Shown: positions 27,691-54,552 of the stretch, piece by piece
Layout of the letters: each line of letters opens with the position of its first letter
Position numbering within the stretch: position 1 is the first letter of the stretch
DNA from: an uncultured Gammaproteobacteria bacterium
GTDB taxonomy: Bacteria; Patescibacteriota; Patescibacteriia; UBA11705; JABHMO01
Assembly: GCA_964486065.1 (NCBI GenBank)
Contig: CAZAKN010000004.1
Span: 15,705-79,704, forward strand
Length of the DNA stretch: 64,000 bases
Direction of reading: 5' to 3'
Notes under the pieces: model-generated
Told to the model about the DNA's origin: nothing
Database searches by the model: none
Seen by the model: the letters and a program-made list of their open reading frames with translations, nothing else
Program-made: the position numbers and the translations under genes

Positions 27691-27742
27691 GTGAGAGAGG
27701 GACTTGCAATTTTCCAAATTGTAAATCTCCGCATTTTTCCAA

Positions 27743-29356: not shown

Positions 29357-32300
29357 ATGAGAAAATTATTATCTATCGCTCTAGTATTTACTACAGTACT
29401 ATGGGCAATGGGATTTGGCGCTTTTATCCCGGTCGCTTCAGCTACTGCCAATTTGGAAGCAGGTGATTTGATTAAGGGTAGCCACGCAGCCGTTTATTAT
29501 TATGCGACTGATGGGAATAGATACACTTTCCCGACCCAGTCAACTTACATGACTTGGTACACCGATTTTTCAGGTGTAAAAACAATTACTGATGATGAAT
29601 TGGCAGCCATTGATTTGGCCGGTAATATCGTTGTCAGACCCGGTACCAATTTGGTTAAAATCCAAAGTGTGCCGAAAGTTTTCGCTGTTGAACCTAATGG
29701 AATGTTAACTTGGGTTGAAACAGAAGAAGTTGCTGAAGCTCTTTATGGTGAAAACTGGGCTCAGAGAGTTATTGATGTTCCGGATGGCTTCTGGGTAAAC
29801 TACACAGATTCAGGAGAAGCTTTGGACGGAACTGAATTCCCTGAAGGATCTTTGATCCAATATGAAGGAACCAGCGATGTTTATTATGTAAGTGGTGATG
29901 GCACTCAAAGAAGAATTGCCAACGAATCCGCTTTTGACGCCAATGGTTTCCAATGGGATTATATCTTAACCGCTCCTTCAGGCCTTGGTTTAACCGATGG
30001 TCCTGAAATCAATGGTTATGATGAAGATCTTTATGATCCTTCACAAGGTGGTGGAGCCGGATCAATTCCTCCGGCATCAGTTGGAGGTGCTTTGACCGTT
30101 TCTTTTGCCGGTGATAATCCGATGGGAATGGCTATTCCTGCCAACAGCACAGCTGAATTCGTAAAATATGATTTGATGGCCGGCAGTGATGCTGTAAAAA
30201 TTAACGCTATCAAGATTTCAGCCGGTGGTTTATCAACCGCTACAAACATCAAAAATGTAACTTTGTATGTTGCTGGTTCAAAAGTTGGTTCAAGCAAGAA
30301 TATTAATTCTTCCAAGGAAGCAACTTTCAATTTCTCTGATCCTATCATGATTTCGGCAGGCGCAACCAAAGAATTGGTTGTTAAAGCTACAGTTATTGCG
30401 AATGGTTATTACGCTTTGGGTATTAATGAAGCAAGTGATATTACCACTAATGCTTCAAGCTTGAACGGTTCTTTCCCGTTGATGGGTAACAGCCATCAAG
30501 CTGCAGCCAACTCAGCTATCGGTTCAGTTGAAGTTGATGGTGTTGATACCGTTTCTAATTCTAATGTCGCTTTTGGTGAAGATGATGTATTGGTCGCGGC
30601 TTTTGATTTGACTGCCAAAGAAGAACCGGTATTGTGGGAATCTATGCGCATGCGTAATGGTGGAACCAATGATGACGAATTGATCAATAATTGTAGAATC
30701 TTGGTAAATGGTGATGAAATCGCCACAGGTGATTATTATGATCGCTATTTAGAAGCTGACTTGAACAATTATCGTATTGATAAGAGTGATAAGGTTAATG
30801 TGGAAGTTTATTGTGACATGGGATTGGGCAATGTAGGAAATAAAGTTATTTTCTATGTTAAAGATCGTGATGATTTCGCTTTCTTGGGCGAAGATTACGG
30901 TTTTGGAGTTCAATTCGTTGACGGTTCATCTACCGCTAAAGCTTGGAATAATTCAGGTACCGGTTTCAGCAATACAACCAACGCTAAAAACATTACTTTA
31001 ACCGCGGGCAGTGTATCCATGGATATGGATAAATCAGCTACTCCGGCTAAAGATGTTAAACCTGATACCAGTGATGTAGTATTGGCAACTTTCTCTATTG
31101 TTTCCAATGGAGAAAACGCAACCATTAATTCAATTGCGGATGCCGGAGCAACCAAAAAATTCAGATTGGAAGGTAGCGGATTACAAACTGCTGAAATTGA
31201 AAATGTGGAAATGAGAGATGTGGCTACAGGCGCTCTGTATGATATCGCAGCAACTTTTACCACTGATCATTATACATTGTCAATAACTGATGAAATTTCA
31301 TTGGCTAAGGGAGTTGAAAAGACTTATGAAATCAGAGCTGATTTGACTGATATTATTGACAATACAAATACCGTTAAAGTAGTTTTGGATTCAGGTGCTA
31401 TCTCTATTGAAGGCGATACTTCCAGTGCCAACTTGCAAGGAGAAATTACGCCGAGTAATGTTTCTTCAGCCATTACAACCGTTAAAGATGCTTCTTTGAT
31501 TCTTTCAGCAACTTCTTTAACCAGTAAAACAGTTGTATCTAGTACGGAAGATGTTGTGGTTTATCAAGCTACTGTTGAAGCGGGTAATGCTGATGATGTT
31601 AAATTGAAAAGTTTGAAATTAACAACTGATACAGCTGACGCTAGAACTTTTGATGATGCTAATATCAGTGAATTGAAATTGTATCTGGATGGTGTATTGC
31701 TAAAAACTTCTTCAAATGACATTGTGGAAGCTGCTGATGCTACATCCTCAGGTACAATTACATTCAATTCTTTGTCAACAACCAATGATGCCAATGTGAT
31801 TGAAGCAGGTGAAACTGTTAATTTGATGGTTAAAGCCAGCTTTTCATCAAGTTTCACACTAACTGGAGATAAGAACTGGCTTTTGAAAGTAAATGCCTCC
31901 GGTGATCTTTCCGCCAGATCGGTAGTGGGTAACAAGGTCGTGCTACCTACAGGTTCAAGTCTTACTGCTACTTCCAGAACGGTTACTTTGGCTGAAACCG
32001 GTAAGTTAAAGGTTGATTTGCAAACAACCGGAACCAAGGTTGATGAAGATTCCTATTTGTTAGCCGGCAGTGAAACCGAAGCTGACAAATATTTGGCTGA
32101 ATTGGTATTTACCACTCAAAACGAAGCTGTTAAAGTTAAGACTTTAACTTTGACTGATAGCGGTTCAGCAACCGGTGATGATATCGCCAAAGTTAAATTG
32201 GTTGAAGGTGACGGAACCGTAGTGGCTGAAAAAGTTCCAACTTCTAATGGAAGTGTTACTTTTGATCCGTTTGATGTGGTATTCCCGGCAGACGAAGCAA

Positions 32301-33025
32301 CTTCATTGTACTTGGCTATTGAAGCCAAAGGTATGAATGTTAACGGAGATCCTACCTCAACTGCGAATTATGGTGCTACCATGAGTTATAAGATCAGTGC
32401 CGTAACAGCTGAAGGTTACTCAGGAACAGCTTTGACTGTAGGGGCTGCAGGTGACGGAAGTCCTTCTTTTGAGGAATACGATGATACTGATGCTTCAAAG
32501 CAACATATCGTTGTAGGTTCTGTATTAAAATCATTGGAAAATGATATGGCCAACGGTACCTTAACCGGTGGAGACGGTAAGATTGTCGGCAAATACAACT
32601 TGGTATTTGATAACGGCTCAAACAGAACTTCCGGTAATTCCGAATTGAAAGCTCAATTGAATGAAGCTGTTTTCGCAGTTGCTAAGAGTGACGCTGTTAG
32701 ATTAGCGACAGTATCCATGTATGTTGAAGGAACAACTACTGAAGTAGGTACAACCGCTAATACATGTAATGCTGCTGGTACAAGCTGTACGCTTACTTTT
32801 GCTTCAGATAGATTGAACAGTTTGGCTGAATCAGGTCTGGTTGACGGTGAAGTAGTATTGGTCTTGAAAGGTAATATTGTTACCACTACTGATCAATATT
32901 TGCAAACTTCAATCTCTGACTTGAGTTCAGTCTTTAACTATAATGGTAATCATGGTACCGGTTCTGACTTGACTAACATGTTGTTAGGCAAGACTAGTGA
33001 ATCAGGTGCTACTCTATCTAACTAA
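29357..33025 (+). CDS. giant secreted T/S/G/A-rich repeat surface protein (putative S-layer/adhesin-like)
   Basis: 1222 aa, signal peptide MRKLLSIALVFTTVLWAMGFGAFIPVASA, repetitive Ig/beta-sandwich-like low-Cys composition. Confidence 0.6.
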   Translation: MRKLLSIALVFTTVLWAMGFGAFIPVASATANLEAGDLIKGSHAAVYYYATDGNRYTFPTQSTYMTWYTDFSGVKTITDDELAAIDLAGNIVVRPGTNLVKIQSVPKVFAVEPNGMLTWVETEEVAEALYGENWAQRVIDVPDGFWVNYTDSGEALDGTEFPEGSLIQYEGTSDVYYVSGDGTQRRIANESAFDANGFQWDYILTAPSGLGLTDGPEINGYDEDLYDPSQGGGAGSIPPASVGGALTVSFAGDNPMGMAIPANSTAEFVKYDLMAGSDAVKINAIKISAGGLSTATNIKNVTLYVAGSKVGSSKNINSSKEATFNFSDPIMISAGATKELVVKATVIANGYYALGINEASDITTNASSLNGSFPLMGNSHQAAANSAIGSVEVDGVDTVSNSNVAFGEDDVLVAAFDLTAKEEPVLWESMRMRNGGTNDDELINNCRILVNGDEIATGDYYDRYLEADLNNYRIDKSDKVNVEVYCDMGLGNVGNKVIFYVKDRDDFAFLGEDYGFGVQFVDGSSTAKAWNNSGTGFSNTTNAKNITLTAGSVSMDMDKSATPAKDVKPDTSDVVLATFSIVSNGENATINSIADAGATKKFRLEGSGLQTAEIENVEMRDVATGALYDIAATFTTDHYTLSITDEISLAKGVEKTYEIRADLTDIIDNTNTVKVVLDSGAISIEGDTSSANLQGEITPSNVSSAITTVKDASLILSATSLTSKTVVSSTEDVVVYQATVEAGNADDVKLKSLKLTTDTADARTFDDANISELKLYLDGVLLKTSSNDIVEAADATSSGTITFNSLSTTNDANVIEAGETVNLMVKASFSSSFTLTGDKNWLLKVNASGDLSARSVVGNKVVLPTGSSLTATSRTVTLAETGKLKVDLQTTGTKVDEDSYLLAGSETEADKYLAELVFTTQNEAVKVKTLTLTDSGSATGDDIAKVKLVEGDGTVVAEKVPTSNGSVTFDPFDVVFPADEATSLYLAIEAKGMNVNGDPTSTANYGATMSYKISAVTAEGYSGTALTVGAAGDGSPSFEEYDDTDASKQHIVVGSVLKSLENDMANGTLTGGDGKIVGKYNLVFDNGSNRTSGNSELKAQLNEAVFAVAKSDAVRLATVSMYVEGTTTEVGTTANTCNAAGTSCTLTFASDRLNSLAESGLVDGEVVLVLKGNIVTTTDQYLQTSISDLSSVFNYNGNHGTGSDLTNMLLGKTSESGATLSN

Positions 33026-33056: not shown

Positions 33057-33092
33057 AGAAAACCGTTCCCGCCGTAAGGCGGGGCGGTTTTT
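33057..33092 (+). terminator. rho-independent terminator
   Basis: cccgcc-gtaa-ggcggg(gcgg) stem + TTTTTGTTTT. Confidence 0.6.
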
Positions 33093-33392: not shown

Positions 33393-34115
33393 ATGACTAA
33401 CAAAAAAACAAACAAACAGCCGGAAGAAGCTGTTCAAGAAAAAAATGAAAAAAAGTTTGACAAACCGTTCAAGCAAAAAGGAGGCATTTATTTTCATGCG
33501 GGAGCGATTATCGGTCGCAAGAATGTATTTGTTACCAATGAGTACATTGATCTTTTGGTCAATGCAATTAAATTGGCTGAATTGAAATTTGATGTAAAAA
33601 ACATCGGATATTTAATCATGCCGAACTTTTTCTATTGGATGTTTAAATTGAGTGATAATCAGGATAATCCCGGTCGCGTTTACGGTGAAGTGAAAAAAGA
33701 TGTGGGAGGTGAAATTATCAAGTATTTACTGGAGGAAACAAGAGAAAGTAAGCAATTTGACTTGGTGGATTTATTCAAAAATGCTGAAACCGTCGGGCGT
33801 TCCAATCCTCAAAAAATTCTTTGGACATTTGAAGAACATGGTAAAAGGTTCAAAGAAACAAAAAGATTTCGCGTCTGGGCGCCGAAAACCGAAGTGCGTT
33901 TGATTGATTCAGCGGAAGTTCTGCAACAAAAACTGGAAGTGATGATGAAAGCTCCGGGTAATGATCGTTGGCAATTGGTGAAAGATGGCAGAGATTATCC
34001 TTATCTTTACATAGATGAAGAATATTTGGACGGTGGAAAAGCGGAAGAAGAAAATAAAGAAAAAACTTATGTGCCGGTAACCGAGCCGGCCGGTAATGCC
34101 ATGGCAACCGCTTGA
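33393..34115 (+). CDS. IS200/RAYT-like (HUH, COG1943-type) transposase-related protein with degenerate HuH motif
   Basis: YLIMPNFFYWMF aligns with the MxNHxHLLx HuH motif of RAYT/IS200 proteins but both His are replaced (F,Y); GRSNPQKILWTFEEHGKRFK resembles the GRSGxLWQxRFK block; C-terminal ...DGRDYPYLY resembles the ...dYpwSS tail. Confidence 0.4.
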   Translation: MTNKKTNKQPEEAVQEKNEKKFDKPFKQKGGIYFHAGAIIGRKNVFVTNEYIDLLVNAIKLAELKFDVKNIGYLIMPNFFYWMFKLSDNQDNPGRVYGEVKKDVGGEIIKYLLEETRESKQFDLVDLFKNAETVGRSNPQKILWTFEEHGKRFKETKRFRVWAPKTEVRLIDSAEVLQQKLEVMMKAPGNDRWQLVKDGRDYPYLYIDEEYLDGGKAEEENKEKTYVPVTEPAGNAMATA

Positions 34116-34176
34116 TTGAATACTTAAAAACTAATTCCGCCGCGGGCATACCCGCGGCGGAGAAAGGAGGACCTTT

Positions 34177-36429
34177 ATGAAAACATTAAAAAATATATCA
34201 GCCATAGTGATAATATCATGTTTAATTCTCGGATTACCGGTGTCTGCCGGCGAGGGCGGGAATTCACAGCTGATACAAAACACTTTCCATGATAGCCAAG
34301 TTCAGCAATACTATTTCATTAATTGCGGGGAAGAGTGTGAAGCCGTATTTGAACAAATGGGTATGTTTATGGGACAAGGAATATCCGCGCCCGCTGAAAC
34401 TGATGATGAGCAAGAGGAAGAGAATTTGACAGACTTGGAAATCGGCGAAAATCCTTTTGAAAACGAGAATTCACAAACTGAAGAAGAACCAAGTGAAGAT
34501 AATCTTCCAAGCGAAGAAGATGATAATTTAAATCAAGGAAACGAAGAACAAGACAATTCTGAAAGTGAAGAAAGTGAAAGCCCTCCGCAGGAGCCTGAAG
34601 AACTTGAAGAAAATGAACCGGAAAACTCGGTCGTCGTTGGTTATCATGATTTGCGGATAAACGAATTTATGCCCGATCCGGAGAGTGGAGCTGATGAATT
34701 GGTGGAGATTTACAATACTTTGGAAACAGCGGTTGATTTGACCGGTTGGGTGGTGGAAGAAGGTGGTGGCAAACAAACCGATCTTAGCGGAGAAATCGTC
34801 GCTGGCGGATATGTGGTGGTTGAGAGAAAATATCTGAATAATTCCGGTGATATCTTGTTTTTACGCGACGCGGAAGGGACCATGATTGATCAAGTTACTT
34901 ATGGTAATTGGGATGATGGTATTATTGAAGATAATATTCCCGCGCCGAAAAAAGGAAATACAATAATTCTGCATCAAGGAGAATATAAGGAAACAATTAT
35001 CAGCAGTTTTGGCGAGATGAATGTTTACACGGCAAAACAAGATTCTTCAGACGCTAATCAAGAATCGGACAATAATGATCAAGAGACGACGGATCCGGTT
35101 GATAATTTGCAAGAAGATGAGGTTATTGAAAACAACCAAGATGCTGAAGAGCAAGACGGCGCGGAAGATGATTTGCCGGGCGTGGAGCAGGAAGAAGAGG
35201 AAGTAAATAATGATCAACAAACTGTAAATTACGACTATTCGGATGAAATCGCGATCAGCGAATTGCTACCCAATCCCGAGGGTAGTGATGATTCTGAATG
35301 GATCGAATTACATAATATGGGTGAAACAACCGTTAATTTAAAGGGTTGGAGCCTGGATGACGGCGAAGGGGGAAGCTCCCCCTTCACCGTGGAAGAAGAT
35401 TTGTTTATTGAAGCCGGACAATATTTGATAATTGACAGAGCCATGAGCGGGTTGGCATTGAATAATTCCGGTGACGCGTTGAGATTGATGGATCCTGACG
35501 GTGTAATAGTTTCCGAGTATACTTATGTGACTTGTCATGAAGGGAAAAGCTGGGCTTGGATAAATTCGGAATGGATTGAAACCATGGATATTACTCCCGG
35601 AGCGGAAAATATTGTCAGCGTGCAAACCGCGGAATTTTTAGACGAAGCTTCTGATAATCCGGAGGATTATGATGAATCAACATATTTGACGGTCAATCTT
35701 CAAGAGGCGCGGAATTTACCATTACAAAGTAAAATTGTAACTCAAGGACAAGTTTCCGTTTTACCCGGAGTTCTGGGCAAGCAGATTATGTATGTCAGCG
35801 GAAGCGGTATGCAAGTGTATTTTTCCAAAGCTTTGTGGCCGGAATTGTCTTTGGGCGACAGAATATCTTTGAAAGGTAGTTTATCTGAATCCCGAGGAGA
35901 GAGAAGAATTTTGATCAAAGAAACACAAGATATAGAAAAAATAAGTGGTGGCGAGCTATCGCCACCACTGGAAATCTCTTTGACTCAGGTGGGTGAAGAA
36001 TATGAAGGCAATTTGGTTAAGGTCAAAGGTGAAATTATTGAAAAAAACGGTTCAAAACTTTATTTATTAAGCGGATCTGAAGAAGCTGTCTTGAAGATCA
36101 AAAAAGGCACGGAAATTAATTTGGCTTCATTTGAAAATGGCGATGAGATTGAAGCCGTGGGAATAGTCAGCCAATATGATGAGAATTATTTCGTTTTGCC
36201 TCGCCGGCAAGAAGATTTGGTCAATATAACCAAGCAAAATTTGCCCGTAGTCGGAGATTTGGCGGAAAATGAAACCATTGCTTCAGAACCGATTAAATTA
36301 CAGGCTCGTTGGGTTTTGGCGGTTTTAGCCGTGGGATTATTGTTCGTTAACGCGATTTATGCCTATAAGAACAGAGAAAAACTATTCACTTTGCTCAAAT
36401 TAAAACTTAATTCAGCGGATTCCGATTAA
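34177..36429 (+). CDS. lamin-tail-domain (LTD) surface protein, two LTD repeats, C-terminal TM anchor
   Basis: signal peptide; acidic linker; two LTD-like repeats (LRINEFMPDPESGADELVEIYN...GW... and ISELLPNPEGSDDSEWIELHN...GW...); C-terminal TM VLAVLAVGLLFVNAIYAY. Confidence 0.65.
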   Translation: MKTLKNISAIVIISCLILGLPVSAGEGGNSQLIQNTFHDSQVQQYYFINCGEECEAVFEQMGMFMGQGISAPAETDDEQEEENLTDLEIGENPFENENSQTEEEPSEDNLPSEEDDNLNQGNEEQDNSESEESESPPQEPEELEENEPENSVVVGYHDLRINEFMPDPESGADELVEIYNTLETAVDLTGWVVEEGGGKQTDLSGEIVAGGYVVVERKYLNNSGDILFLRDAEGTMIDQVTYGNWDDGIIEDNIPAPKKGNTIILHQGEYKETIISSFGEMNVYTAKQDSSDANQESDNNDQETTDPVDNLQEDEVIENNQDAEEQDGAEDDLPGVEQEEEEVNNDQQTVNYDYSDEIAISELLPNPEGSDDSEWIELHNMGETTVNLKGWSLDDGEGGSSPFTVEEDLFIEAGQYLIIDRAMSGLALNNSGDALRLMDPDGVIVSEYTYVTCHEGKSWAWINSEWIETMDITPGAENIVSVQTAEFLDEASDNPEDYDESTYLTVNLQEARNLPLQSKIVTQGQVSVLPGVLGKQIMYVSGSGMQVYFSKALWPELSLGDRISLKGSLSESRGERRILIKETQDIEKISGGELSPPLEISLTQVGEEYEGNLVKVKGEIIEKNGSKLYLLSGSEEAVLKIKKGTEINLASFENGDEIEAVGIVSQYDENYFVLPRRQEDLVNITKQNLPVVGDLAENETIASEPIKLQARWVLAVLAVGLLFVNAIYAYKNREKLFTLLKLKLNSADSD

Positions 36430-36496
36430 ATGTGCATAAAGTCTTAGTTAAAGGTTGCTAAATGTGGTATAATAAAAAAGAACTTAATTTAGATAA

Positions 36497-39238
36497 ATGG
36501 CCACTAATTTTGGTAAAATAGTGTCTCTTTTTGTGAATAGACTTAAACACATTTTTGAGTTTACGACTTTTTATGTTTTGAAATACAAAAAAAGTTTAAT
36601 TTTTGTATTACTTTTATTGATTATCGCCACAAGCTGGTTTGGTTTTTCGGAAACTCCTTTGGCTCATGCTGCAGATGGTGGCGGTAAAGGCGATATTGAA
36701 ATTATGGGCTTGAAAATCACCTTGGATGATGTTTTGGATGTTGTAAATCGTTTATTGTTCGTGGTGGCCTATGCTTTAGGTTGGGTGGCTTCATTTTTAT
36801 TCGGAGCGGTGGTTTATGTTGCTTCTTTTCAAGAAATTGTTGATTCTTTGGCCGTTACCAGAGCTTGGACTTTGGTTCGCGATTCCATGAACATGTTTTT
36901 TGTGATTATTCTTTTGGTGATCGCTTTCGCGGAAATTTTACAAATTAAACAATATTCCATAAAAGCTGTTCTGCCCAAGGTTTTGTTGGCCGCCATTTTG
37001 GTTAATTTCAGCAAGCTGATTTGCGCCATTGCCATTGATTTCGCTCAAGTGGTGATGATGACCTTTGTTAACGGTTTCGCGCAAACCGCCGGTGGAAATT
37101 TGGCTTCAGGTCTGGGTTTGACTCGGCTGATGGAATTGAATACTTCCAGCCAATGTGAAGCTAATACCGATATGACATGGACGCAATTAACCGGCTTGGT
37201 ATTGGCGGTTTTTTATTTAGTAATGGTAGTGGTTGTGGTGATGTTTATTTTGTTGATCTTGGTTTTCAGGATCGCCGCTTTATGGCTTTTGGTGGTTTTA
37301 TCTCCGGCTGCTTTTATTTTTCACGCTATGCCTTCGGGAACCAAAATGAAAAACAAAGCTAATGAATGGACGGATAAATTCGTAAATTATGTGTCTATCG
37401 GTCCCATCATGGCGTTCTTTTTGTGGATGTCTTTATTGGTAATGGGTAATGCCGGCGGAGTTATACAAAAAGATAAAAGTTTGGAATTTATTTGCCAGCA
37501 AGGCGCGACGGGTATGCAGGGTTTTGATCAATTCACCAGTTCCATGGTTGGTTTGGCTTTGTTGGCGGCCAGTTTGTTGGCGGCTCAGGAAGTCGGTGGA
37601 GTGGCCGGGCAGATTGCTTCAAAAGGATTGAGTACGGCTAAAAAAGTGGCTACTTCCATGCCTTTATCAGTAGCAAAGTTTGCTGATGATAGAACAATGG
37701 GGTTACGAAATAAAGCGATCGGTTTTAGAGAGCAAATGAGAGCCAAGAGTGAGAGAAGAACCGCCTCACAAAAAGAAGCCGGCGCGGGATTGTATGCTAA
37801 AAAAGAAAGATTGGTGGCCGGAGCCAAGGAAAAAATGCATGACCTTAAAGAGGGGACATTGAGTTTGGCTGGTTTGGACACGGGTTCCAGAGCCTATCGT
37901 AAGGCTATTGCCGAAGGAGCTTCCGAAGAAGAAGCTCAACAAGCAAAAGAAAGCGTCAAGAAAACCAGAAAAAGCATGGTGGGCTTGGAAAATAAAACTA
38001 CAGCTTCAGCCATAGAGTCAAGTAGAAAAAAGAAAGCTATGGAAGAAGCTGAAAAAAATCTCGCCGCCATGGGATTGGATACCAAGGAAGACAGGCAACA
38101 AGCATTGTCATCAGGTCAAGTTAAAGGTGAAGAATTTAAGGCTTTGAATTTGAAAATGGCGGAAAAAGGAGAATTTGAAACAAATGAGCAAGTGGCTAAT
38201 GCGCGCAAACAGTTGTCCGGAGATGATTTGAAAGCATTTGAAGATAATCTGAAGAAAAACCAAAAATCAATGTATTACTCCAAAGAGGATGGAACGATTG
38301 ATGAAACAAAAATTGAAAAAGATATTGATAGCGGAGATTTGGATATTAGAAGATTTTCAGTTGATGATTTGGGCAACGAAGATTTGATGGTTAGCATCGC
38401 CAATCAAATGGGAGCAGGTAATTTGTCAAAATCATTGGCCAAAGCTGGAGAAAGAAGTGATAATCACAATGAAGCAGCTCAAACATCAATGAAAGCGGTA
38501 CTTGAACAAGCCAAACAACAAAAAGGTGAAAATCCTGAAGAATACGAAAAAGCGCAAAAAGCTTATGCCGGGATGACGGGAGATATAAAAGAAGCGTTTA
38601 CCGGAGATGATGGTGAAATTGACACCATTCAATTGAAATCATATTTGGCGGGAGCATCACAAAAACAATTGGAGAAAACTAAAATTGATGAAAGTGATAA
38701 TAACACAATGCAAGCCTTTGCCTCCGCGATTCAAAGATCAAGTTTGAAGCGTTTAGCCAGATCAAACGAGGGGCAAGCCCATAATTTGATGAATACCGTG
38801 ATTTCGCAAAAAATAGACAGCAATCCCGATGATCCGGCATTGGTTAAAATTGCTTCAGATCATGATATTTCAGCAATTTTAACTGAAGAAAATTCGAAAA
38901 AAATAAAACAAATGGAGATAAAAGTAACAAAGGAAAAGAGTGAGGCTACGGGACAAAGTCGCCAGATTGATAATAAGATTTCCGATTTTGCCGGAGAAAA
39001 AATCGCTTCTGCCATGAAGTTTGAAAATAAACCGGCCTCCGCTTTCAGCGATCAGGACATTGACCAGTTGAAAAATCAGGTTATGAATCAGCTTAAAGGA
39101 GAAATGAAAGATAATATGAAGATTGAGGAGGAAGAAATCAATAAAATGGAAAAAGAATTGGATGAAAAAATCGCGCAAGCCATGCAAGAAGCCAAAACCA
39201 AGGCGGAAAGACAAGCCTCGGGCGGAACCCAAACATAA
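36497..39238 (+). CDS. VirB6/TrbL-like polytopic membrane protein with long charged C-terminal domain
   Basis: 913 aa; >=7 predicted TM helices in the first 400 aa, then hydrophilic K/E-rich coiled-coil-like tail; located in the cluster with PrgI-like and VirB4-like genes. Confidence 0.5.
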   Translation: MATNFGKIVSLFVNRLKHIFEFTTFYVLKYKKSLIFVLLLLIIATSWFGFSETPLAHAADGGGKGDIEIMGLKITLDDVLDVVNRLLFVVAYALGWVASFLFGAVVYVASFQEIVDSLAVTRAWTLVRDSMNMFFVIILLVIAFAEILQIKQYSIKAVLPKVLLAAILVNFSKLICAIAIDFAQVVMMTFVNGFAQTAGGNLASGLGLTRLMELNTSSQCEANTDMTWTQLTGLVLAVFYLVMVVVVVMFILLILVFRIAALWLLVVLSPAAFIFHAMPSGTKMKNKANEWTDKFVNYVSIGPIMAFFLWMSLLVMGNAGGVIQKDKSLEFICQQGATGMQGFDQFTSSMVGLALLAASLLAAQEVGGVAGQIASKGLSTAKKVATSMPLSVAKFADDRTMGLRNKAIGFREQMRAKSERRTASQKEAGAGLYAKKERLVAGAKEKMHDLKEGTLSLAGLDTGSRAYRKAIAEGASEEEAQQAKESVKKTRKSMVGLENKTTASAIESSRKKKAMEEAEKNLAAMGLDTKEDRQQALSSGQVKGEEFKALNLKMAEKGEFETNEQVANARKQLSGDDLKAFEDNLKKNQKSMYYSKEDGTIDETKIEKDIDSGDLDIRRFSVDDLGNEDLMVSIANQMGAGNLSKSLAKAGERSDNHNEAAQTSMKAVLEQAKQQKGENPEEYEKAQKAYAGMTGDIKEAFTGDDGEIDTIQLKSYLAGASQKQLEKTKIDESDNNTMQAFASAIQRSSLKRLARSNEGQAHNLMNTVISQKIDSNPDDPALVKIASDHDISAILTEENSKKIKQMEIKVTKEKSEATGQSRQIDNKISDFAGEKIASAMKFENKPASAFSDQDIDQLKNQVMNQLKGEMKDNMKIEEEEINKMEKELDEKIAQAMQEAKTKAERQASGGTQT

Positions 39239-39250
39239 TAAAATCAATTT

Positions 39251-40840
39251 ATGCCGGAAAAGAAAAACACAAAAAACAAAAATAATAAAAAAAATTCCAA
39301 TAGCGGATTGAGTGAGGAATTGGCCTTTTATTTGAAATCACCGATAGCCGCGGAAATAAACGCGGGCATTGCGGCGGAACATGAATTAACGGTGGGGCAA
39401 TTGGCACGCATGACCGAATTGATCAGCTCGGTTTATGATAAAAAAATGCCTCCCGCCAATTTGCCTGAAGCTTTAAAAAATTCTTTGGAAATTGAACAAA
39501 AGAAAGCGCAAAAGATCGCCAAAGAAATCGCCGGAAAAAGATTATTGGTGGTTGATGAGTTGGCTTTTGGCGGACAAATAGCGAAATTGCTACAAGAGTG
39601 GGGAGGACAAGGCACTGATTATGAAAAACTGATTGAAGAATACAGGGATCAAGTTGAAAGAGATAAACAAAAGGCGGAAGATGAAAAACTGAATCAAGAA
39701 TATGAACAAATGATGGTGGAAAAACAAGAACAAGCCGAAGAGGCGGTTGAAGATGTGGGTGAAAAATTAACCGATGCTTTGCTCAGTAATCCGGAAAAAG
39801 AAAAAAAACAATTGAAGGATTCCATGAAATCCGATTTATTGTATTTATTGACCACGGATGATTATAAACTGAAAGCCGAATTGAATTATCGTATCGCTTT
39901 TTTGGTGGCCGCTGATGATGAAGGCAAATTTGTTCGTGATTTAACGGATGAATTGTATAAAAACAAAGAAATTTTAACTGAAACAAAAGTGCAAATGAAA
40001 GATGAGAAGTTACCCGGTACGATCGGAAATTGGCTTAAAGATTATGTTGCTTATGTGGGATTGGAAGAAACTGTTAGCAGTATCAAAAAAGCTCAGTATT
40101 TCACGGAAGCTCCCAATGCTAAAAAACTAAAACAAGAAGAGAAAAACAAATTGGATAATTTACTGGATTTTTTCGTTAATTTACAAAAAGTATATACCAA
40201 TATAAGTAAATACGATTTGTCGGAAGTTCAGATTTTACCGATCAGCGAAGCTGAACGAGCCAAATTTATCGCGGAAATTGAACAAGCCGAACAAAAGAAA
40301 ATAACCAAGACAAGTAAAGTGAAAAAAACTACGGACCAAGCGCAAGAAGATAAGCAAGAAATTGACATTGGCGCCATGTATGAAGGCGATCCTGATGAAA
40401 GATTGGCGATTGATAAGCATAAGAAAGATTTGATCATGGAAACGCGCAAAGAGTATCATAAAATCGCCGATAAATTGGAAGATTATTTATTGCGTCGTAA
40501 AAGAGTGCCGATTTTGGCGTCACTTGAACTTTTGGCCGAGATCGGAGCGTTGGATAATTTGCTGGCCAATGATCAACGATATCAAGACTTTTTGTTCGGT
40601 TATTTGAAGCGCAATAATATGTCCAAATTACAAGATGAATTTAAAGCCAATCCATATCAAAGTCGTTTTTTAAAATTTTTTCTTCGTTTCGTGTTGGAAG
40701 AACGGCTGGGTATTCGCGAGGAAGAAGCGGCTCGTATCGCCGCTAAGCTTAGCATGATTTTCCAAGAAAAGGGCGCTGAGGAATACGGCGAAATGGCTTA
40801 TTTGGATTTGGCGGAAGGTAAATTTAAATGGAGTGAATAA
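39251..40840 (+). CDS. hypothetical protein (T4SS-like cluster)
   Basis: 529 aa, K/E-rich; translationally coupled (8-nt overlap) to next ORF. Confidence 0.5.
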   Translation: MPEKKNTKNKNNKKNSNSGLSEELAFYLKSPIAAEINAGIAAEHELTVGQLARMTELISSVYDKKMPPANLPEALKNSLEIEQKKAQKIAKEIAGKRLLVVDELAFGGQIAKLLQEWGGQGTDYEKLIEEYRDQVERDKQKAEDEKLNQEYEQMMVEKQEQAEEAVEDVGEKLTDALLSNPEKEKKQLKDSMKSDLLYLLTTDDYKLKAELNYRIAFLVAADDEGKFVRDLTDELYKNKEILTETKVQMKDEKLPGTIGNWLKDYVAYVGLEETVSSIKKAQYFTEAPNAKKLKQEEKNKLDNLLDFFVNLQKVYTNISKYDLSEVQILPISEAERAKFIAEIEQAEQKKITKTSKVKKTTDQAQEDKQEIDIGAMYEGDPDERLAIDKHKKDLIMETRKEYHKIADKLEDYLLRRKRVPILASLELLAEIGALDNLLANDQRYQDFLFGYLKRNNMSKLQDEFKANPYQSRFLKFFLRFVLEERLGIREEEAARIAAKLSMIFQEKGAEEYGEMAYLDLAEGKFKWSE

Positions 40841-42083
40841 TATGTCCGACAAAAAACAAATTAAAGGTTATGCTTTGGTCCGTGACAAGGATGGTGTTTT
40901 AAAATATTACAAGGACGGCAAGTTTTTTACCAAAAAAGAAATTCAAGAAGCCGTTGCGCGGAGCTCAAAAAAAGAATCAGAAAATTCGCCGAAAAAAGTT
41001 TTAAAACCGGTTTTAAGCTATCAAAAGAAATCAGAACCGAAAAAGAAAATTGATATTGAAGAGGCTTTGGAACAAGATTGGGCAGAACTTAATTCCGGCT
41101 CGGATTTGACCAAAGCAAGAGAAGAAGATAAAAAAAATATTGAAAAAAAAGTCCAAGAAGTCATAAAAAGATTGAAGATTTCTTTTAGCGATGAAAAGAT
41201 CAAACAAAGATTTATCAATATTTTGATCACTTATTTCCGAGGCATCAGATCCCGCAAAGAAATAGAATATGCTTTGGCTTTGCCCAAGATGAGTGGAGGT
41301 TTGGAAATATCGGGAGAAAAAGCTCGCCTGATTGGTAAGGTTTTGGAAAATTATCAAGAAGAAGTTCATAATGGCAGAAAAAAAACCGTGGAAAAAGTGG
41401 AGCAAAAGCCGATAGTGAGAAAGGAAACCGTTGATTTGCGCCACCGAATCGCGCCACCGCCACCGGCTGTAAATAGGGAAAAAAATGATGGCTTAAAAAA
41501 GTTGGATCAATTGATCAAGCAAGAGAGCGCCCAGCAATATGTTTTCAGCAAAAATAAGGTAAAATCGGTTTCTGAGCCGGCGGAACGCTCATCTTCTATT
41601 AAACAACAAACAAAAAACAAAGAATTGTCGCGAAATAGTCGTATTGAAAAACAAAAAATGAAAACCATGATCAAACCGAAACCGGAAAAACCTTCCTTAA
41701 AACAAAGTGACGCAAAAGAGCGACCGGTGATGAATGATGTAAAAAGAGCTTCGCGATATTTGACCGGACCTTTGGAAGAATTGGAATACATGGATTTAAA
41801 AGGTTTTCGTTTACTTGGAAAAACCAATGACGCGATGATTGACGCCATGAAAAACAAGTTGAATATACTGGTCGAGCAATCATTGCCCCAAAAAATACAA
41901 GGAATCAAAGCATGGAGAAGATCCCCGGTTTTTCAATTGTATTTGGACATGAATTTACAAGGGATTCGTGAAGATAAATCTTTGCAAGAAGTGATTGAAG
42001 CGCGACAATTCGCCAATCAAGAAACGCTTTCTTTGAGCGAATATGAAACAATTGGTCAATTAAACACCATTTACACCATATGA
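40833..42083 (+). CDS. hypothetical protein (T4SS-like cluster)
   Basis: 416 aa, lysine-rich; overlaps neighbours by 8 and 4 nt. Confidence 0.5.
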   Translation: MNNMSDKKQIKGYALVRDKDGVLKYYKDGKFFTKKEIQEAVARSSKKESENSPKKVLKPVLSYQKKSEPKKKIDIEEALEQDWAELNSGSDLTKAREEDKKNIEKKVQEVIKRLKISFSDEKIKQRFINILITYFRGIRSRKEIEYALALPKMSGGLEISGEKARLIGKVLENYQEEVHNGRKKTVEKVEQKPIVRKETVDLRHRIAPPPPAVNREKNDGLKKLDQLIKQESAQQYVFSKNKVKSVSEPAERSSSIKQQTKNKELSRNSRIEKQKMKTMIKPKPEKPSLKQSDAKERPVMNDVKRASRYLTGPLEELEYMDLKGFRLLGKTNDAMIDAMKNKLNILVEQSLPQKIQGIKAWRRSPVFQLYLDMNLQGIREDKSLQEVIEARQFANQETLSLSEYETIGQLNTIYTI

Positions 42084-42550
42084 AGCAGTTTTTAGTACCG
42101 CAATTTATTGATGTGGAAGACAAAATACTTGGGCCGATAACCATGAGGCAATTTATTTTAATGTTAGTATCGGCGCTTTTATTGTTTATTTTATACAAAT
42201 TGCTTTCATTTTTTTACTTTATCGCGGCCGGACTTTTGGATTTGGGAATGTTCGCGACTTTGGCTTTCGCCAAAATTAATGGTCGTCCGATTCATTTTTT
42301 TCTGTTGAACTTTTTGCAAACTTCACGAAGACCCAATTTTCGCGTTTGGAGTAAATCCGCTTTCGTGCGTGATGTGCAAGATGAAAAATCGGAGATTAAA
42401 GAAAAAACAAAACAAAAGAAAAACAAAGAACCTATTTCAGGATCACGATTGCAAGATGTATCATTGGTTGTAAACACGGGAGGGTTATATGAAGGAGAAA
42501 ATGAAGATTTTACCGCGGAAGAAAGATTAAAAGAAAAGCCTATCGGTTAA
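42080..42550 (+). CDS. PrgI-family (VirB3-like) small membrane protein
   Basis: N-terminus VPQFIDVEDKILGPITMRQFILMLV + two TM helices matches the Gram-positive PrgI pattern (vPkdl..K..fgLTkRQ). Confidence 0.55.
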   Translation: MKQFLVPQFIDVEDKILGPITMRQFILMLVSALLLFILYKLLSFFYFIAAGLLDLGMFATLAFAKINGRPIHFFLLNFLQTSRRPNFRVWSKSAFVRDVQDEKSEIKEKTKQKKNKEPISGSRLQDVSLVVNTGGLYEGENEDFTAEERLKEKPIG

Positions 42551-42577
42551 TATATTTAAAAATGATATTAGTTTCAT

Positions 42578-43258
42578 ATGCAAGATAAAAAATTGGCGGG
42601 CAATAAAATTCAGCAATCCACTCAGCTGTTCATGGATATTGCCGAAATTAAAAACGATACCGTTATTTTAAAAAACGGAACTTTAAGAGCGGTTCTCATG
42701 ACCTCCAGTATTAATTTCGCTTTGAAATCAGACGATGAGCAAGAGGCGTTGGTTTCCAGTTATGTCAGTTTTTTGAATTATCTTGATTTTCCTATCCAGA
42801 TAGTGGTGCAATCGCGCAAATTGGATATCGGTAATTATTTAAACCGTATTTCCGAAGCGGAAAAAGAATTGACCAATGATTTATTAAAAAGAGTGGTGGT
42901 TAATTACAAAGCATATGTTAAAGAATTGGTTGATTTGGGTGATATTATGACCAAGCAATTTTTTATCGTAGTGCCTTACAGTCCGGTGGAAAATAAATCC
43001 GAAGGATTTTGGTCCAAGTTGGGAGCGGTTTTCACTCCCGCGAAAATAGTGCGTTTAAAACAAGAAAAATTTAAAAAGTATTCGCATGCGTTGGATCAGC
43101 GCGTCAATCATGTGAAAATGAATATTTCCAGCTTGGGATTGACCACGGCCAGATTGGACACGCAAAGTTTGATAGAGCTTTATTACAATGTATATAATCC
43201 TCATTTGGCACAAACGCAAAAAATGGTGGATACGGATAAATTGCGAATAGAAGAATAA
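42578..43258 (+). CDS. VirB4/TrsE-like conjugative ATPase, N-terminal domain fragment
   Basis: ...RAVLMTSSINFALKSDDEQEALVSSYVSFLNYLDFPIQIVV... matches N-terminal region of Gram-positive VirB4 homologs; ends at TAA in same frame as next ORF. Confidence 0.65.
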   Translation: MQDKKLAGNKIQQSTQLFMDIAEIKNDTVILKNGTLRAVLMTSSINFALKSDDEQEALVSSYVSFLNYLDFPIQIVVQSRKLDIGNYLNRISEAEKELTNDLLKRVVVNYKAYVKELVDLGDIMTKQFFIVVPYSPVENKSEGFWSKLGAVFTPAKIVRLKQEKFKKYSHALDQRVNHVKMNISSLGLTTARLDTQSLIELYYNVYNPHLAQTQKMVDTDKLRIEE

Positions 43259-43270
43259 TTCAAATATTAT

Positions 43271-45175
43271 ATGTTTAAAACATCGGATATTAATAAAAAA
43301 TCTCTGCTTTCAGAAAAAAAAGAAGAAAAACCAGAGATTAAGGAAGAAGAAAAACAAAAACAAATCGCTCAAAAATCAGCAGAATCGCAAAAAGCTTTGG
43401 AGCAGGAAAAAACATATCGCAAAGGTATAACTTCGGTTTTGGATATTGTCGCGCCGGATGCAATGGAAATAAAACCCAGTTTGATCCATCTCGGCGATAG
43501 GGTGGCCAGAACTATGTTTATTATGGGGTATCCGAGATATATTTCCGTGGGCTGGTTTTCACCGATTTTGAATTACAGTGCGGCTCTTGATGTGAGTATG
43601 TATTTTTATCCCATGGAATCGGAAGTGGTTTTAAAACAGTTGAAAAACAAAGTTGGTATTTTGCAGGCGACTTTGGCCACGGACGCGGAAAAAGGCGCTC
43701 CTCGCGACCCATTGAGAGAAACCGCTTTGCGTGATATTGAAAAATTGCGTGATGATTTAACTCAAGGTATAGAAAAATTTTTTCAATTCGGTTTATACAT
43801 CACTTTGTATGAAAAAGATGAAGAAAAACTTGATATGCTGACAGCGGACATTGAATCTTTGTTGGGATCAAGGTTGATTTTTTCCAAACGCGTGCTTTAT
43901 CAAGCCGAACAAGGTTTCAATTCCTGTATTCCGCTCGGTAATGATGAGCTTATGATTACCGCCAATTTGAATTCTTCTCCCATTGCCGCGTCTTTTCCTT
44001 TTATTTCTTCCGATTTAACTTCTGATGAAGGAATTTTGTTCGGAATTAATCGTCACAATAACAGTTTGATAATTTTTGATCGTTTTTCTTTGCAAAACGC
44101 TAATGCTTGCGTTTTTGCGACTTCCGGTGCCGGTAAAAGTTATACCATTAAATTGGAAGTTTTGCGTTCCATGATGCTTGGTACGGATGTTATCATTATT
44201 GATCCGGAAAAAGAATACAAAAATTTATGTGACGCGGTGGGCGGAACTTATGTAAATATTTCTTTAAATTCGGATGTGAAGATCAATCCTTTTGATTTAC
44301 CTCGCAAAGTCGGAGATATGTCAACGGAAGATATTATCCGTAGCGCGGTTATTTCATTGAAAGGACTCCTGAGAATCATGCTTGGCGAGTTGACCTTTCA
44401 AGAAGATTCTTTGCTGGATCGCGCTTTGATTGAAACTTACGCCAAAAAAGACATCACCGCGGACAGTGATCTGTCAAAAGTGGAACCGCCGACCATGATT
44501 GATTTGTATCAAGTTTTGGATGGCATGGAAGGCGCGGATGATCTGGCTTTGCGACTTAAGAAATTCACGGATGGAACTTTTTCCGGTTTGTTCACTTCGC
44601 CGACAAATGTGGAGATGAATAATCAATTGGTTATTTTTTCAGTTCGTGATCTGGAAGACGAATTGCGTCCCATGTCCATTTATTCAATTGTCAATTACAT
44701 TTGGAATGTGGTGCGTTCGGAAATGAAAAAAAGGATTCTGGTGATTGATGAAGCTTGGTGGCTAATGCAACATGAAGATTCAGCCAGATTTATTCACGCT
44801 TTGGTGAAACGGTGTCGTAAATATTATCTCGGTGTTACCACCATTACACAAGATGTTAATGATTTTTTGCTTTCACAATACGGTCAAGCCATTGTTACTA
44901 ATTCGGCCATGAAAGTTTTACTTAAACAATCCAACGCCTCCATTGATCTTTTGCAAAAGACTTTTATGTTGACCGAAGGTGAGAAATATTTACTGTTGGA
45001 AAGTAATGTGGGTGAAGGCATCTTTTTTGCGGGTAATCGTCACGCGGCCATTCGCGTGGTGGCTTCAACCTTGGAAGATCGTCTGGTAACCTCCGATCCG
45101 CGACAACTTTTGGAAGAAGAAAAGCGTAAAAAAAAGAAAAAACAAGAATTGGAAGAAGCCGAAGGCGCGGTTTAA
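43271..45175 (+). CDS. VirB4/TrsE-like conjugative ATPase, central + ATPase domain
   Basis: ...HLGDRVARTMFIMGYPRYISVGW...; Walker A FATSGAGKSYT; Walker B ILVIDEAWWLM. Confidence 0.8.
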   Translation: MFKTSDINKKSLLSEKKEEKPEIKEEEKQKQIAQKSAESQKALEQEKTYRKGITSVLDIVAPDAMEIKPSLIHLGDRVARTMFIMGYPRYISVGWFSPILNYSAALDVSMYFYPMESEVVLKQLKNKVGILQATLATDAEKGAPRDPLRETALRDIEKLRDDLTQGIEKFFQFGLYITLYEKDEEKLDMLTADIESLLGSRLIFSKRVLYQAEQGFNSCIPLGNDELMITANLNSSPIAASFPFISSDLTSDEGILFGINRHNNSLIIFDRFSLQNANACVFATSGAGKSYTIKLEVLRSMMLGTDVIIIDPEKEYKNLCDAVGGTYVNISLNSDVKINPFDLPRKVGDMSTEDIIRSAVISLKGLLRIMLGELTFQEDSLLDRALIETYAKKDITADSDLSKVEPPTMIDLYQVLDGMEGADDLALRLKKFTDGTFSGLFTSPTNVEMNNQLVIFSVRDLEDELRPMSIYSIVNYIWNVVRSEMKKRILVIDEAWWLMQHEDSARFIHALVKRCRKYYLGVTTITQDVNDFLLSQYGQAIVTNSAMKVLLKQSNASIDLLQKTFMLTEGEKYLLLESNVGEGIFFAGNRHAAIRVVASTLEDRLVTSDPRQLLEEEKRKKKKKQELEEAEGAV

Positions 45176-45196
45176 AAAATAATTGATTTTATATAT

Positions 45197-45787
45197 ATGC
45201 ATTGGACATTTATTTCCCGTAAAAAGAAAATAATTTTAATCACGGCGACTGTTTTGTTGGTGGTGGCTTTGATTTTAGCTGTGATCATGAATTCGGAAGA
45301 CATGGAAAGCGAAAAACATGGCTCCGAAGGAGCCGGTACCGTTAGGCAAGCTTTGCCCGGAGAATCGGAAACTTTGACAGCCAGACCCGTCCCCGTTCAA
45401 GAGAAACAAGAGGCTTCGCTTAAACAGCAAGTGAAAAATTTTATGGAGAGATACGGCACTTATTCCAATCATGCCGGATTTGCCGGTTTGTATGAATTGG
45501 AGCCCATGATGAATAGTAAGATGCGCGATTGGTTTTACAATTCATATTTACCGAAACTAAGACAAGATCATCCGATTGACGGATTTTATTACAGTGTCAG
45601 TACCATGGCGCCGTCCATTGAATTGTTGCGAGAAGAAGAAGGTCTGAAAGTTTACAAAGTCTCCACGCAACGCACGGAAATGATTCAAAAAAACGAAGAC
45701 ACTTTTATTCAAGACGCGGAATTAACCATGGTAGAGCAGTCGGGAACTTGGTTGGTTGATGGTGTTTTCTGGCAAGGAAAAAGGTAA
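45197..45787 (+). CDS. hypothetical membrane-anchored protein (possible VirB8-like)
   Basis: N-terminal TM then ~160-aa soluble domain; position after VirB4; no motif. Confidence 0.4.
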   Translation: MHWTFISRKKKIILITATVLLVVALILAVIMNSEDMESEKHGSEGAGTVRQALPGESETLTARPVPVQEKQEASLKQQVKNFMERYGTYSNHAGFAGLYELEPMMNSKMRDWFYNSYLPKLRQDHPIDGFYYSVSTMAPSIELLREEEGLKVYKVSTQRTEMIQKNEDTFIQDAELTMVEQSGTWLVDGVFWQGKR

Positions 45788-45789
45788 AT

Positions 45790-46491
45790 ATGGATTGGCG
45801 AAAAACATTGGATTCAATTTTGGATTATGTTTTTCCTAAACAGTGTTTCGGATGTGGCGCCGAGGGAGAGTATTTGTGTAAGGATTGTTTCACGCGAATT
45901 GAATATTTGCGTCCGGATCAATGCTATTTTTGTGAAAAACCGGGCTTTGAAAAAGGTATTTGTCCGGCTTGTGCCGAGCAAACTAATGTTAAGTTGATTG
46001 TACCGGCTTGTGCTTACACGGATACGGCGGTAGGGCAATTGGTGGAAAGTTTCAAATATAATTTTATGGAGAGCGCGTCCATGATTTTAAATAAAGTTTT
46101 AGCCACTCAAATTGAAAATTTAAGATTGAAAAACCATATTTACGGAATTCCCGTCGTGCCGATCCCTTTGCATAAAAAAAGATATCTTGAAAGAGGTTTC
46201 AATCAAAGCGAAAAATTGTGTGATTTTTTAACCAAACGCTATGACTCGCGATTAAAAAGCGAATTGTTGCAAAGACAAAAATACACGGCACAACAGGCTA
46301 AATTGAAAAGAAAGGAAAGATTGGCCAATTTAAAAGATTGTTTTGCGGTCAATTTGACGGAAAAAATACCTGAAAGCGTTATCATCGTTGATGATGTTTT
46401 AACTACGGGCGTGACTATGCGCGAAGCGTCTCAAGCTTTGAAAAAAGCGGGAGTGAAAAACATTATTTGTTTGGCGGTTTGCCATGGATAA
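45790..46491 (+). CDS. comFC: ComF-family competence protein (double zinc ribbon + phosphoribosyltransferase domain)
   Basis: CFGCG...CKDCF...C..C...CPAC N-terminal ribbons; C-terminal PRT motif VIIVDDVLTTGVTM. Confidence 0.8.
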   Translation: MDWRKTLDSILDYVFPKQCFGCGAEGEYLCKDCFTRIEYLRPDQCYFCEKPGFEKGICPACAEQTNVKLIVPACAYTDTAVGQLVESFKYNFMESASMILNKVLATQIENLRLKNHIYGIPVVPIPLHKKRYLERGFNQSEKLCDFLTKRYDSRLKSELLQRQKYTAQQAKLKRKERLANLKDCFAVNLTEKIPESVIIVDDVLTTGVTMREASQALKKAGVKNIICLAVCHG

Positions 46492-54507: not shown

Positions 54508-54552
54508 CTAAAATGTATAAAAAATATTATGATATGAATATTGCAAGAATAT

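Follow-up and report, generated by a model that had tools for sequence, protein, structure and literature searches.

The gene cluster considered here occupies positions 34177-46491 on the + strand of a 64-kb stretch of contig CAZAKN010000004.1, referred to below as the window, whose coordinates are used throughout. It consists of nine tightly packed and intact open reading frames (ORFs) whose junctions overlap or nearly touch, encoding in order a surface protein with lamin-tail domains (LTDs), a VirB6-like membrane protein, two soluble lysine/glutamate-rich proteins that we call KE1 and KE2, a PrgI/VirB3-like protein, a TrsD-like protein, a VirB4 ATPase, a VirB8-like protein and a ComFC-type protein. 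An earlier interpretation made from the letters alone, the sequence-only reading, had described most of this as a reduced type IV secretion system (T4SS). All the ORFs that it listed are present on this strand where it placed them, but its list was one short, since it left out the ORF of 226 amino acids (aa) that lies between the genes for PrgI and VirB4.

Conservation of the cluster was followed in two sets of loci from other assemblies. A scan for VirB4 relatives, with one genome per species, found 307, and the best 80 of them (66-79% identity) constitute the VirB4-anchored loci. Their assemblies bear the titles Falkowbacteria, Magasanikbacteria, Uhrbacteria, Parcubacteria or Patescibacteria, and many are TPA records under the name 'uncultured Gammaproteobacterium', which we regard as a mislabelling. 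The first three of these groups we take to belong to the GTDB class ABY1. The second set comprises 17 KE2-anchored metagenome loci, which were gathered with close KE2 sequences and therefore sample the window's subclade only. In addition, family hidden Markov models (HMMs) and hhalign were run against the transfer proteins of the plasmids pCF10 and pSK41, and structural models were compared with the PDB using Foldseek.

At the centre of the cluster lies the VirB4 ATPase (43271..45175, 634 aa), which represents the C-terminal two thirds of a VirB4 of the CD1110/MPF_FATA-like kind. It scores 349.1 bits against NF045971 (cutoff 325), covering positions 172-730 of that model, and it matches P-loop_TraG, AAA_10 and DUF87 in Pfam, with Walker A (SGAGKS) and Walker B (ILVIDEAW) motifs both intact in the translation. 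The HMM of its family matches TrsE at 4.5e-56 and PrgJ at 3.7e-51. The VirB4/TrsE-like ATPase of the sequence-only reading therefore stands, but the detached N-terminal part of the same protein had been overlooked: the 226-aa ORF (42578..43258) matches NF045975 (VirB4_plasma) at positions 92-284 (4e-11), and the 634-aa ATPase corresponds to positions 277-887 of the same model. This TrsD-like ORF also matches NF041427 TrsD at 8.7e-7 (28.9 bits, below the cutoff of 200), carries a precomputed match to PF26593 (TraC-like), and belongs to a family whose HMM matches the TrsD of pSK41 at 4.5e-10. Because the TrsD-like gene is found in 76 of 76 VirB4-anchored loci, the split of VirB4 is not a frameshift artefact. 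From the 66-79% identity to Falkowbacteria, Magasanikbacteria and Uhrbacteria loci, we infer that the window VirB4 belongs to the Patescibacteria clade of these ATPases. Upstream of the TrsD-like gene, the PrgI/VirB3-like membrane protein (42080..42550) is confirmed by PF12666 at 33.7 bits (gathering score 27); it contains a transmembrane (TM) hairpin at residues 16-55, and its gene is present in 72 of 72 loci.

The gene that directly follows virB4 in 73 of 73 VirB4-anchored loci encodes, in the window, a bitopic protein of 196 aa (45197..45787), which had been proposed as possibly VirB8-like. A single-sequence search of a set of 5.8 billion proteins returned 2 matches only, Pfam scans of its orthologues gave PF04335 in 1 of 70 and SnoaL_4 in 2 of 70, and against PDB sequences this family, like the VirB6-like and LTD families, gave only TM, coiled-coil or compositional matches. 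Its AlphaFold2 (AF2) model, built from a 54-sequence alignment, has a predicted local distance difference test (pLDDT) score of 87.6, rising to about 97 over residues 67-196. In it a disordered linker joins a TM helix at the N-terminus to an NTF2-like domain, which is built of three helices and a curved sheet of four strands. The top Foldseek match of this model is the VirB8 domain of PrgL (7aed, E 2.5e-4), with further matches to IcmL-like 5cnl, CagV (6iqt, TMt 0.70), the VirB8 of R388 (TrwG, 8rtd_Y), TraM and OrfG; generic NTF2-fold proteins score similarly to VirB8s, so that gene context contributes to the assignment. The family profile aligns with PrgL over 160 columns (hhalign probability 86.6%, E 4.5e-6). 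The model, the profile alignment and the position after virB4 together support its identity as a VirB8/PrgL-like protein.

The 913-aa protein encoded at 36497..39238 combines a membrane part of about eight hydrophobic segments with a charged C-terminal tail, some 540 aa long and rich in lysine, glutamate and alanine, which agrees with the polytopic protein with a tail of some 500 aa that had been described. The tail is probably cytoplasmic according to the positive-inside rule, and it matches only coiled-coil proteins (SMC, TolA). The proposed VirB6/TrbL identity draws its support from the orthologues and not from the window protein, which has no TrbL, VirB6 or other Pfam match at E <= 0.1: when 43 VirB6-like orthologues were scanned individually against Pfam, 9 matched PF04610 TrbL (best 4.6e-5) and no other membrane family recurred. 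With PF04610 the orthologue of locus L047 reaches 16.6 bits, where the gathering score is 25.9. When the membrane part was turned into a profile, it showed a weak alignment with TrsL of pSK41 (hhalign probability 47%, P 2e-4) and none with PrgH of pCF10 (probability 0.1%). The gene is present in 40 of the 47 VirB4-anchored loci with enough flank, and the orthologue matches together with the TM segments support, only indirectly, a putative divergent "extended" VirB6-like protein. According to a 2025 review, the role of extended VirB6 proteins is unknown (PMC12857230). Matches to Enterotoxin_a (8e-4) and NADase_NGA (1.3e-3), each in one VirB6-like orthologue, did not recur when seven long-tailed loci were rescanned, one of them (L074) from outside the original alignment, and they were treated as marginal. 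In a separate locus (L083, ENA ERZ1757541 contig_12241) the VirB6-like gene is called as two ORFs of 802 and 108 aa (1301-4041), split within the charged tail; the same locus encodes an identical 196-aa VirB8-like protein and KE1, PrgI, TrsD-like, VirB4 and ComF products of the same length as those of the window, and the split may indicate that the tail tolerates truncation or may be an assembly error.

Between the VirB6-like gene and the PrgI gene lie KE1 (39251..40840, 529 aa) and KE2 (40842..42083, 413 aa, or 416 from an alternative GTG at 40833), both free of TM segments and of any known family: neither matches Pfam, NCBIfam, PDB sequences or the pCF10 and pSK41 transfer proteins, and no homology was found among KE1, KE2 and the tail of the VirB6-like protein. 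The start of KE2 is most likely the ATG at 40842, one base past the KE1 stop and behind a GGAG motif. The translational coupling that had been proposed for these two genes is therefore retained as tight coupling, but not as an overlap of 8 nt, which corresponds to the start at 40833. In turn, the KE2 stop overlaps the PrgI start (ATGA). Structure prediction, a check suggested by the sequence-only reading, was run for KE2 from a shallow alignment (the alignment-based search gave only 9 matches, as K/E-rich words saturated the candidate list) and produced a helical and disordered architecture: a beta module at residues 14-32, a helical domain at 88-190, a disordered linker rich in proline and lysine at 192-306 and a helical C-terminal domain at 313-415 (pLDDT about 94). 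Foldseek found no fold match for this model in the PDB (best E 1.4). KE2 is conserved in 67 of 67 VirB4-anchored loci, and clustering at 50% identity gives 2,480 representatives for its family. Among the VirB4-anchored loci KE1 was detected in 32 of 54, and among the 17 KE2-anchored ones in 14, including all those with upstream flank. KE1 and especially KE2 thus emerge as uncharacterised, conserved partners of the T4SS core.

Throughout the 80 VirB4-anchored and 17 KE2-anchored loci the order VirB6-like, KE1 (where found), KE2, PrgI, TrsD-like, VirB4 and VirB8-like is essentially invariant, and because the same order recurs in both sets, the arrangement is far beyond chance. The two points on which the sequence-only reading had staked itself can be answered accordingly: profiles find VirB4 and PrgI directly and VirB6 indirectly, and the core is kept as a unit in about 100 related loci. 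That T4SS genes, an LTD gene and comF merely lie side by side by accident, in a module that does not function, might draw on the facts that the LTD link is not general and that comF overlaps murG, but it is contradicted by these synteny counts, with the genes for the TrsD-like protein, PrgI, KE2 and the VirB8-like protein kept in 67-76 of 67-76 loci, as well as by the nine intact frames, their overlapping or near-touching junctions and the intact Walker motifs. We reject this explanation, which is hardly credible.

The surroundings of the cluster are those of an ordinary chromosome, with gyrB, the genes for L1/L11, nusG, gatB, thyA, ftsW, thiI, murG, a P-type ATPase gene, divIC and ftsEX in the window, and the GC content of the cluster (0.37-0.42) is that of the window background (about 0.39). 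Scans with Pfam and NCBIfam of nearly all window ORFs of at least 120 aa found neither a relaxase nor a VirD4/TcpA coupling protein (T4CP), no integrase was found within the 64 kb, and no homologue of T4SS_pilin appeared among window ORFs of at least 35 aa (best E 0.5), so that the earlier remark that no relaxase, VirD4 or pilin is visible holds at the level of profile scans. Neither was a VirB1-like hydrolase domain found in the cluster with Pfam and NCBIfam, nor an effector or toxin/immunity pair in the window. We weighed these observations against the alternative of a conjugative or mobilising element, such as an integrative and conjugative element or an integrated plasmid, or a decaying remnant of one, that would donate DNA. 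The homology of VirB4, TrsD, PrgI and the PrgL-like protein with transfer proteins of pSK41 and pCF10 is what such an element would show, and a gene resembling a REP-associated tyrosine transposase (RAYT) lies just upstream of the cluster (33393-34115). The alternative is opposed by the lack of relaxase, T4CP and integrase in the window, by the housekeeping flanks and background GC, by frames that stay intact across some 100 loci of various candidate phyla, with VirB4 at 66-79% identity, and by the rarity of relaxases in Patescibacteria (PMC12102498). We consequently reject it as very improbable, in agreement with the sequence-only reading, which had favoured a translocation device over a classical conjugative element.

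Comparison with published systems leads to the same identification. The survey of 3,035 genomes by Quinonero-Coronel et al. 2025 found that the Patescibacteria VirB4 clade is monophyletic and nested in MPF_FATA, that TrsD is the commonest partner of VirB4 in this group, that VirB8/PrgL-like matches occur almost only in ABY1, and that comF, recG and radA adjoin the ABY1 T4SS clusters (PMC12102498). Wang et al. 2023 described a Gram-positive-like T4SS in Saccharibacteria that has no recognisable coupling or relaxase proteins and is essential for epibiotic growth (PMC10633639), and a 2025 review treats the patescibacterial T4SSs as an established new branch (PMC12857230). Like the window, the system of Southlakia epibionticum (SEML1_0006-0019; PMC10633639) and the ABY1 arrangement (PMC12102498) are chromosomal, have VirB3, VirB4, VirB8-like and TrsD components of the Gram-positive type together with a VirB6, for which the window has a candidate, and form a cluster without relaxase or T4CP; the ABY1 systems share, in addition, a nearby comF or radA and detectable VirB8/PrgL-like proteins. 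Unlike the published Patescibacteria systems, the window has neither an array of VirB2-like pilins nor a VirB1-like hydrolase, both of which are frequent there but not universal. We are highly confident that the cluster is a chromosomal patescibacterial T4SS; it is an instance of a system already described and not a new kind.

Among plasmid systems, the Trs system of pSK41/pGO1 (Staphylococcus, MPF_FATA, pGO1 subclass) has the same order TrsC(VirB3)-TrsD-TrsE(VirB4) with a split VirB4, and its TrsL, a VirB6 of the TrbL family, is weakly alignable with the window VirB6-like protein. The relaxase, the T4CP TrsK, the CHAP hydrolase TrsG, the topoisomerase, the single-stranded DNA-binding protein and the plasmid location belong to pSK41 only, which conversely has no counterpart of KE1 and KE2. 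The Prg/Pcf system of pCF10 (Enterococcus faecalis) supplies in PrgI (VirB3), PrgJ (VirB4, CD1110 family) and PrgL (VirB8-like) the best matches of the window counterparts, but its VirB4 is a single protein, its PrgH does not align with the window VirB6-like protein, and it carries the hydrolase PrgK, the T4CP PcfC, the relaxase PcfG and the LPXTG adhesins PrgA, PrgB and PrgC.

These results indicate what kind of machine the core encodes; the neighbours that bear on its possible cargo are the genes at the two ends of the cluster. The first of them encodes the 750-aa LTD surface protein (34177..36429), in which PF00932 is matched twice (E 6e-35), as the sequence-only reading had seen; the protein is organised as a signal peptide, acidic spacers, the two LTDs, some 200 aa of C-terminal sequence that in orthologues resemble an OB-fold, and finally a TM anchor, with hydrophobic segments at residues 2-28 and 706-724. 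In 11 orthologues the LTD was found in every one, DUF5689 in 7 (2.4e-9) and the tRNA_anti-codon OB-fold in 6 (1.1e-7). Pfam and NCBIfam revealed no nuclease domain in the window protein, and the ExeM profile reached it with 20 bits (cutoff 1300) in the LTD region only, which together give a predicted architecture of the binding and not of the catalytic type. An LTD extracellular nuclease of the ExeM/NucH type was accordingly ruled out, since the endonuclease/exonuclease/phosphatase catalytic domain is absent though LTDs are present.

The link between the LTD gene and the cluster, proposed in the sequence-only reading, is real within the window's subclade but does not extend beyond it: the gene was linked in 7 of 8 close KE2-anchored metagenome loci, among which the full order from LTD to ComF recurs, and in only 3 of the 80 VirB4-anchored loci (1 of 44 with full upstream flank). 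The 2025 survey of Patescibacteria T4SSs makes no mention of such an LTD/OB gene at the head of the cluster, and the word "lamin" occurs in it 0 times (PMC12102498). Elsewhere the position directly upstream of the VirB6-like gene is taken by a family of giant Cys-rich proteins, probably secreted and without Pfam match (L031 88-3078, L007 131-2833, L047 24-2972 and about 20 further loci), of which the window has no homologue; in some ABY1 loci an M23 peptidase protein fills this slot instead.

At the other end lies the gene of the ComFC-type protein (45790..46491), 2 nt past the VirB8-like gene and overlapping murG by 8 nt. The earlier call of zinc ribbons with a phosphoribosyltransferase fold is borne out by PF18912 (DZR_2, 37.2 bits against a gathering score of 27) and PF00156 (Pribosyltran, 37.3 against 26.3), with matches to TIGR00201 (4.5e-27, 95 bits) and GntX (1e-27, 97 bits) that are both below the curated cutoffs. 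ComF is adjacent to the cluster in 41 of 60 VirB4-anchored loci and in 9 of 9 KE2-anchored loci whose flank reaches that far, with a median gap of 3 nt to the preceding gene. As it is usually the last gene on the same strand, with convergent genes next, its association is with the cluster and not with murG. When the 49 loci with at least 4 kb downstream were classified, 32 had ComF, 6 DsbA plus RadA, 9 DsbA plus T4SS_pilin-domain proteins, 1 DsbA alone and 1 a pilin alone, so that either ComF or RadA stands tight on the same strand in 38 of the 49. The association of ComFC with the cluster that had been noted is thus correct for about two thirds of the loci, and it was already published for class ABY1 (PMC12102498). 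The pilin-domain proteins of ABY1 loci without ComF are 250-700 aa long and join a T4SS_pilin domain (PF18895) to a long Cys-rich C-terminal extension, usually in the company of a DsbA-like thioredoxin; such ORFs occur in 14 of the 80 loci (for example L006 13201-14472, 423 aa).

On this basis the cluster is very likely a macromolecule translocon, and its gene neighbours favour a part in the handling or import of DNA. With moderate confidence, we regard it as an ABY1 (Falkowbacteria-like) T4SS that is vertically inherited, non-conjugative and derived from the monoderm MPF_FATA machinery, this DNA-handling role included. In such a machine VirB6 and VirB8 would form a platform in the single membrane to which VirB3 and TrsD anchor VirB4, and VirB4 would energise the passage of macromolecules across membrane and wall at contact with a host cell, with KE1, KE2 and the VirB6 tail possibly forming a cytoplasmic docking platform in place of the absent coupling protein.

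As for the cargo itself, DNA that is imported and not donated is the candidate we place ahead of each single alternative, while giving it less than an even chance. It is favoured because 38 of 49 loci have one of two transformation-associated DNA-handling genes, comF or radA, at the corresponding place of the operon, because the subclade's surface protein has domains of the nucleic-acid-binding type, and because the ComB and Ced import systems likewise lack relaxase and T4CP. In Helicobacter pylori, the ComB system is a T4SS without relaxase or VirD4 that imports DNA and works with ComEC and ComFC, the latter acting downstream. It resembles the window only in the proposed mechanism, since it belongs to a diderm with a VirB7/VirB9/VirB10 core; Pfam and NCBIfam gave no profile match to VirB9 or VirB10 here, and there is no sign of common descent beyond VirB4, VirB3, VirB6 and VirB8. 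The archaeal Ced system (CedA/CedB) shares with the reading proposed here a VirB4-like ATPase, DNA import and a single membrane, but it has CedA-type proteins, and the best matches of the window VirB4 are bacterial MPF_FATA VirB4s, its scores being 44.7 bits against CedB (cutoff 700) and 32.2 bits against CedD (cutoff 600). An import system of ComB or Ced type by descent was therefore discarded, as neither VirB9/VirB10 nor CedA was found and CedB lies far below its cutoff; the likeness is functional only.

In its most explicit form, import would begin with the capture of DNA by the surface LTD/OB protein, the channel formed by VirB6, VirB8, VirB3 and the split VirB4 would pass it inward, and ComFC, or RadA in sister lineages, would handle the incoming strand. 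This complete scheme of a monoderm DNA importer, with an LTD/OB receptor, KE1, KE2 and the VirB6 tail standing in for the coupling protein and ComFC as receiver, is offered tentatively and is, taken as a whole, rather unlikely to be right in every part.

A different use of the same machine has to be considered at this point, namely that it exports proteins or builds a structure for contact with or attachment to the host, with ComFC and RadA as co-transcribed passengers and KE1 and KE2 as adaptors or substrates. This possibility, which we also hold at less than even probability, was raised by Wang et al., who suggested protein export or another capacity for the Southlakia T4SS given its lack of coupling and relaxase proteins (PMC10633639), and it would suit the T4SS_pilin-domain proteins and DsbA that replace ComF downstream in about one fifth of ABY1 loci, the giant Cys-rich secreted or M23 peptidase proteins that precede the VirB6-like gene in most of them, and the soluble nature of KE1 and KE2 with their long disordered charged linkers. 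Yet no effector, toxin/immunity pair or pilin was found in the window, and the tight same-strand position of ComF or RadA and the DNA-binding-type domains on the subclade's surface protein also count against it.

Several observations, on the other hand, weigh against the overall reading with its part in DNA handling. The OB-fold matches come from orthologues and are absent from the LTD protein of the window itself, the LTD/OB protein is confined to a single subclade, the window's own, and most ABY1 loci carry the giant Cys-rich secreted protein in its slot. ComF is missing downstream in about one third of loci, with pilin-domain proteins and DsbA there instead, and in a small dense genome adjacency can mean co-transcription without shared function, comF moreover overlapping murG. 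As applied to the window's own protein, the VirB6 assignment is a weak one. Finally, in Southlakia the T4SS is essential and comEC is not (PMC10633639, PMC12857230), so that what makes the system essential there is something other than DNA uptake through ComEC.

A large part of bacterial diversity belongs to the Patescibacteria, which cannot make nucleotides, and the one genetically tractable lineage among them needs its T4SS for growth on the host. The locus described here is a compact T4SS, without pilin and without hydrolase, whose neighbours, the LTD/OB protein and ComFC, suggest a concrete hypothesis about cargo. If DNA import through it were true, cells would have a second route alongside the type IV pilus/ComEC pathway, and a possible source of nucleotides for organisms unable to make them.

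Some further features surround the LTD gene. The RAYT-like ORF upstream of it (240 aa) matches NF047646 weakly (1.7e-10, 41 bits against a cutoff of 80) and is followed, just 5' of the LTD gene, by a perfect GC-rich palindrome at 34136-34161 (TCCGCCGCGGGTATGCCCGCGGCGGA); a RAYT-like gene also precedes the LTD gene in the related locus L004. Directly upstream and on the same strand, positions 27136-33025 encode a sigma factor of the ECF type, a DUF5667 protein and a secreted protein of 1,222 aa that has no Pfam match and of which the 80 VirB4-anchored loci contain no homologue; this gene group ends at a strong hairpin of terminator-like form (33067-33084). The LTD and VirB6-like genes are separated by a spacer of 67 nt with the only notable promoter-like site, an extended -10-like motif (TGGTATAAT, TGnTATAAT-like) at 36464-36472, given which the LTD gene may be a separate transcription unit; the consensus promoter scan was overall no better than chance, with 52 sites found and 46.5 expected in shuffled sequence.

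On a larger scale, gene orientation changes at the junction of gyrB and the ORF at 18505 (about 18.3-18.5 kb), being mostly - before and + after it, and beyond this junction the cumulative GC skew shows a steady climb up to about 56 kb. Should the replication origin be located here, the cluster would lie about 16 kb away from it; no dnaA was seen in the window. Such a distance would fit the published remark that patescibacterial T4SS genes are often near the origin.

Further downstream, past two tRNA-Ser genes (54266-54640), positions 56131-63483 form an island of high GC content (50-65%, against a background of about 39%) bounded by a 28-nt direct repeat (56131-56158 and 63456-63483, 27 of 28 positions identical). 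Type-III hammerhead ribozymes are matched twice on its - strand: the match at 61215-61270 exceeds the gathering score with 49.1 bits, and the one at 56394-56448 reaches 45.0 bits (E 1.8e-7). Between them, on the same strand, lie genes for a protein of 91 aa, for a DEAH RNA helicase that resembles HrpA (58820-60766, identity 30%) and for a protein of 707 aa without Pfam or phage match. The island may represent a foreign or mobile element with a ribozyme-cleaved transcript.

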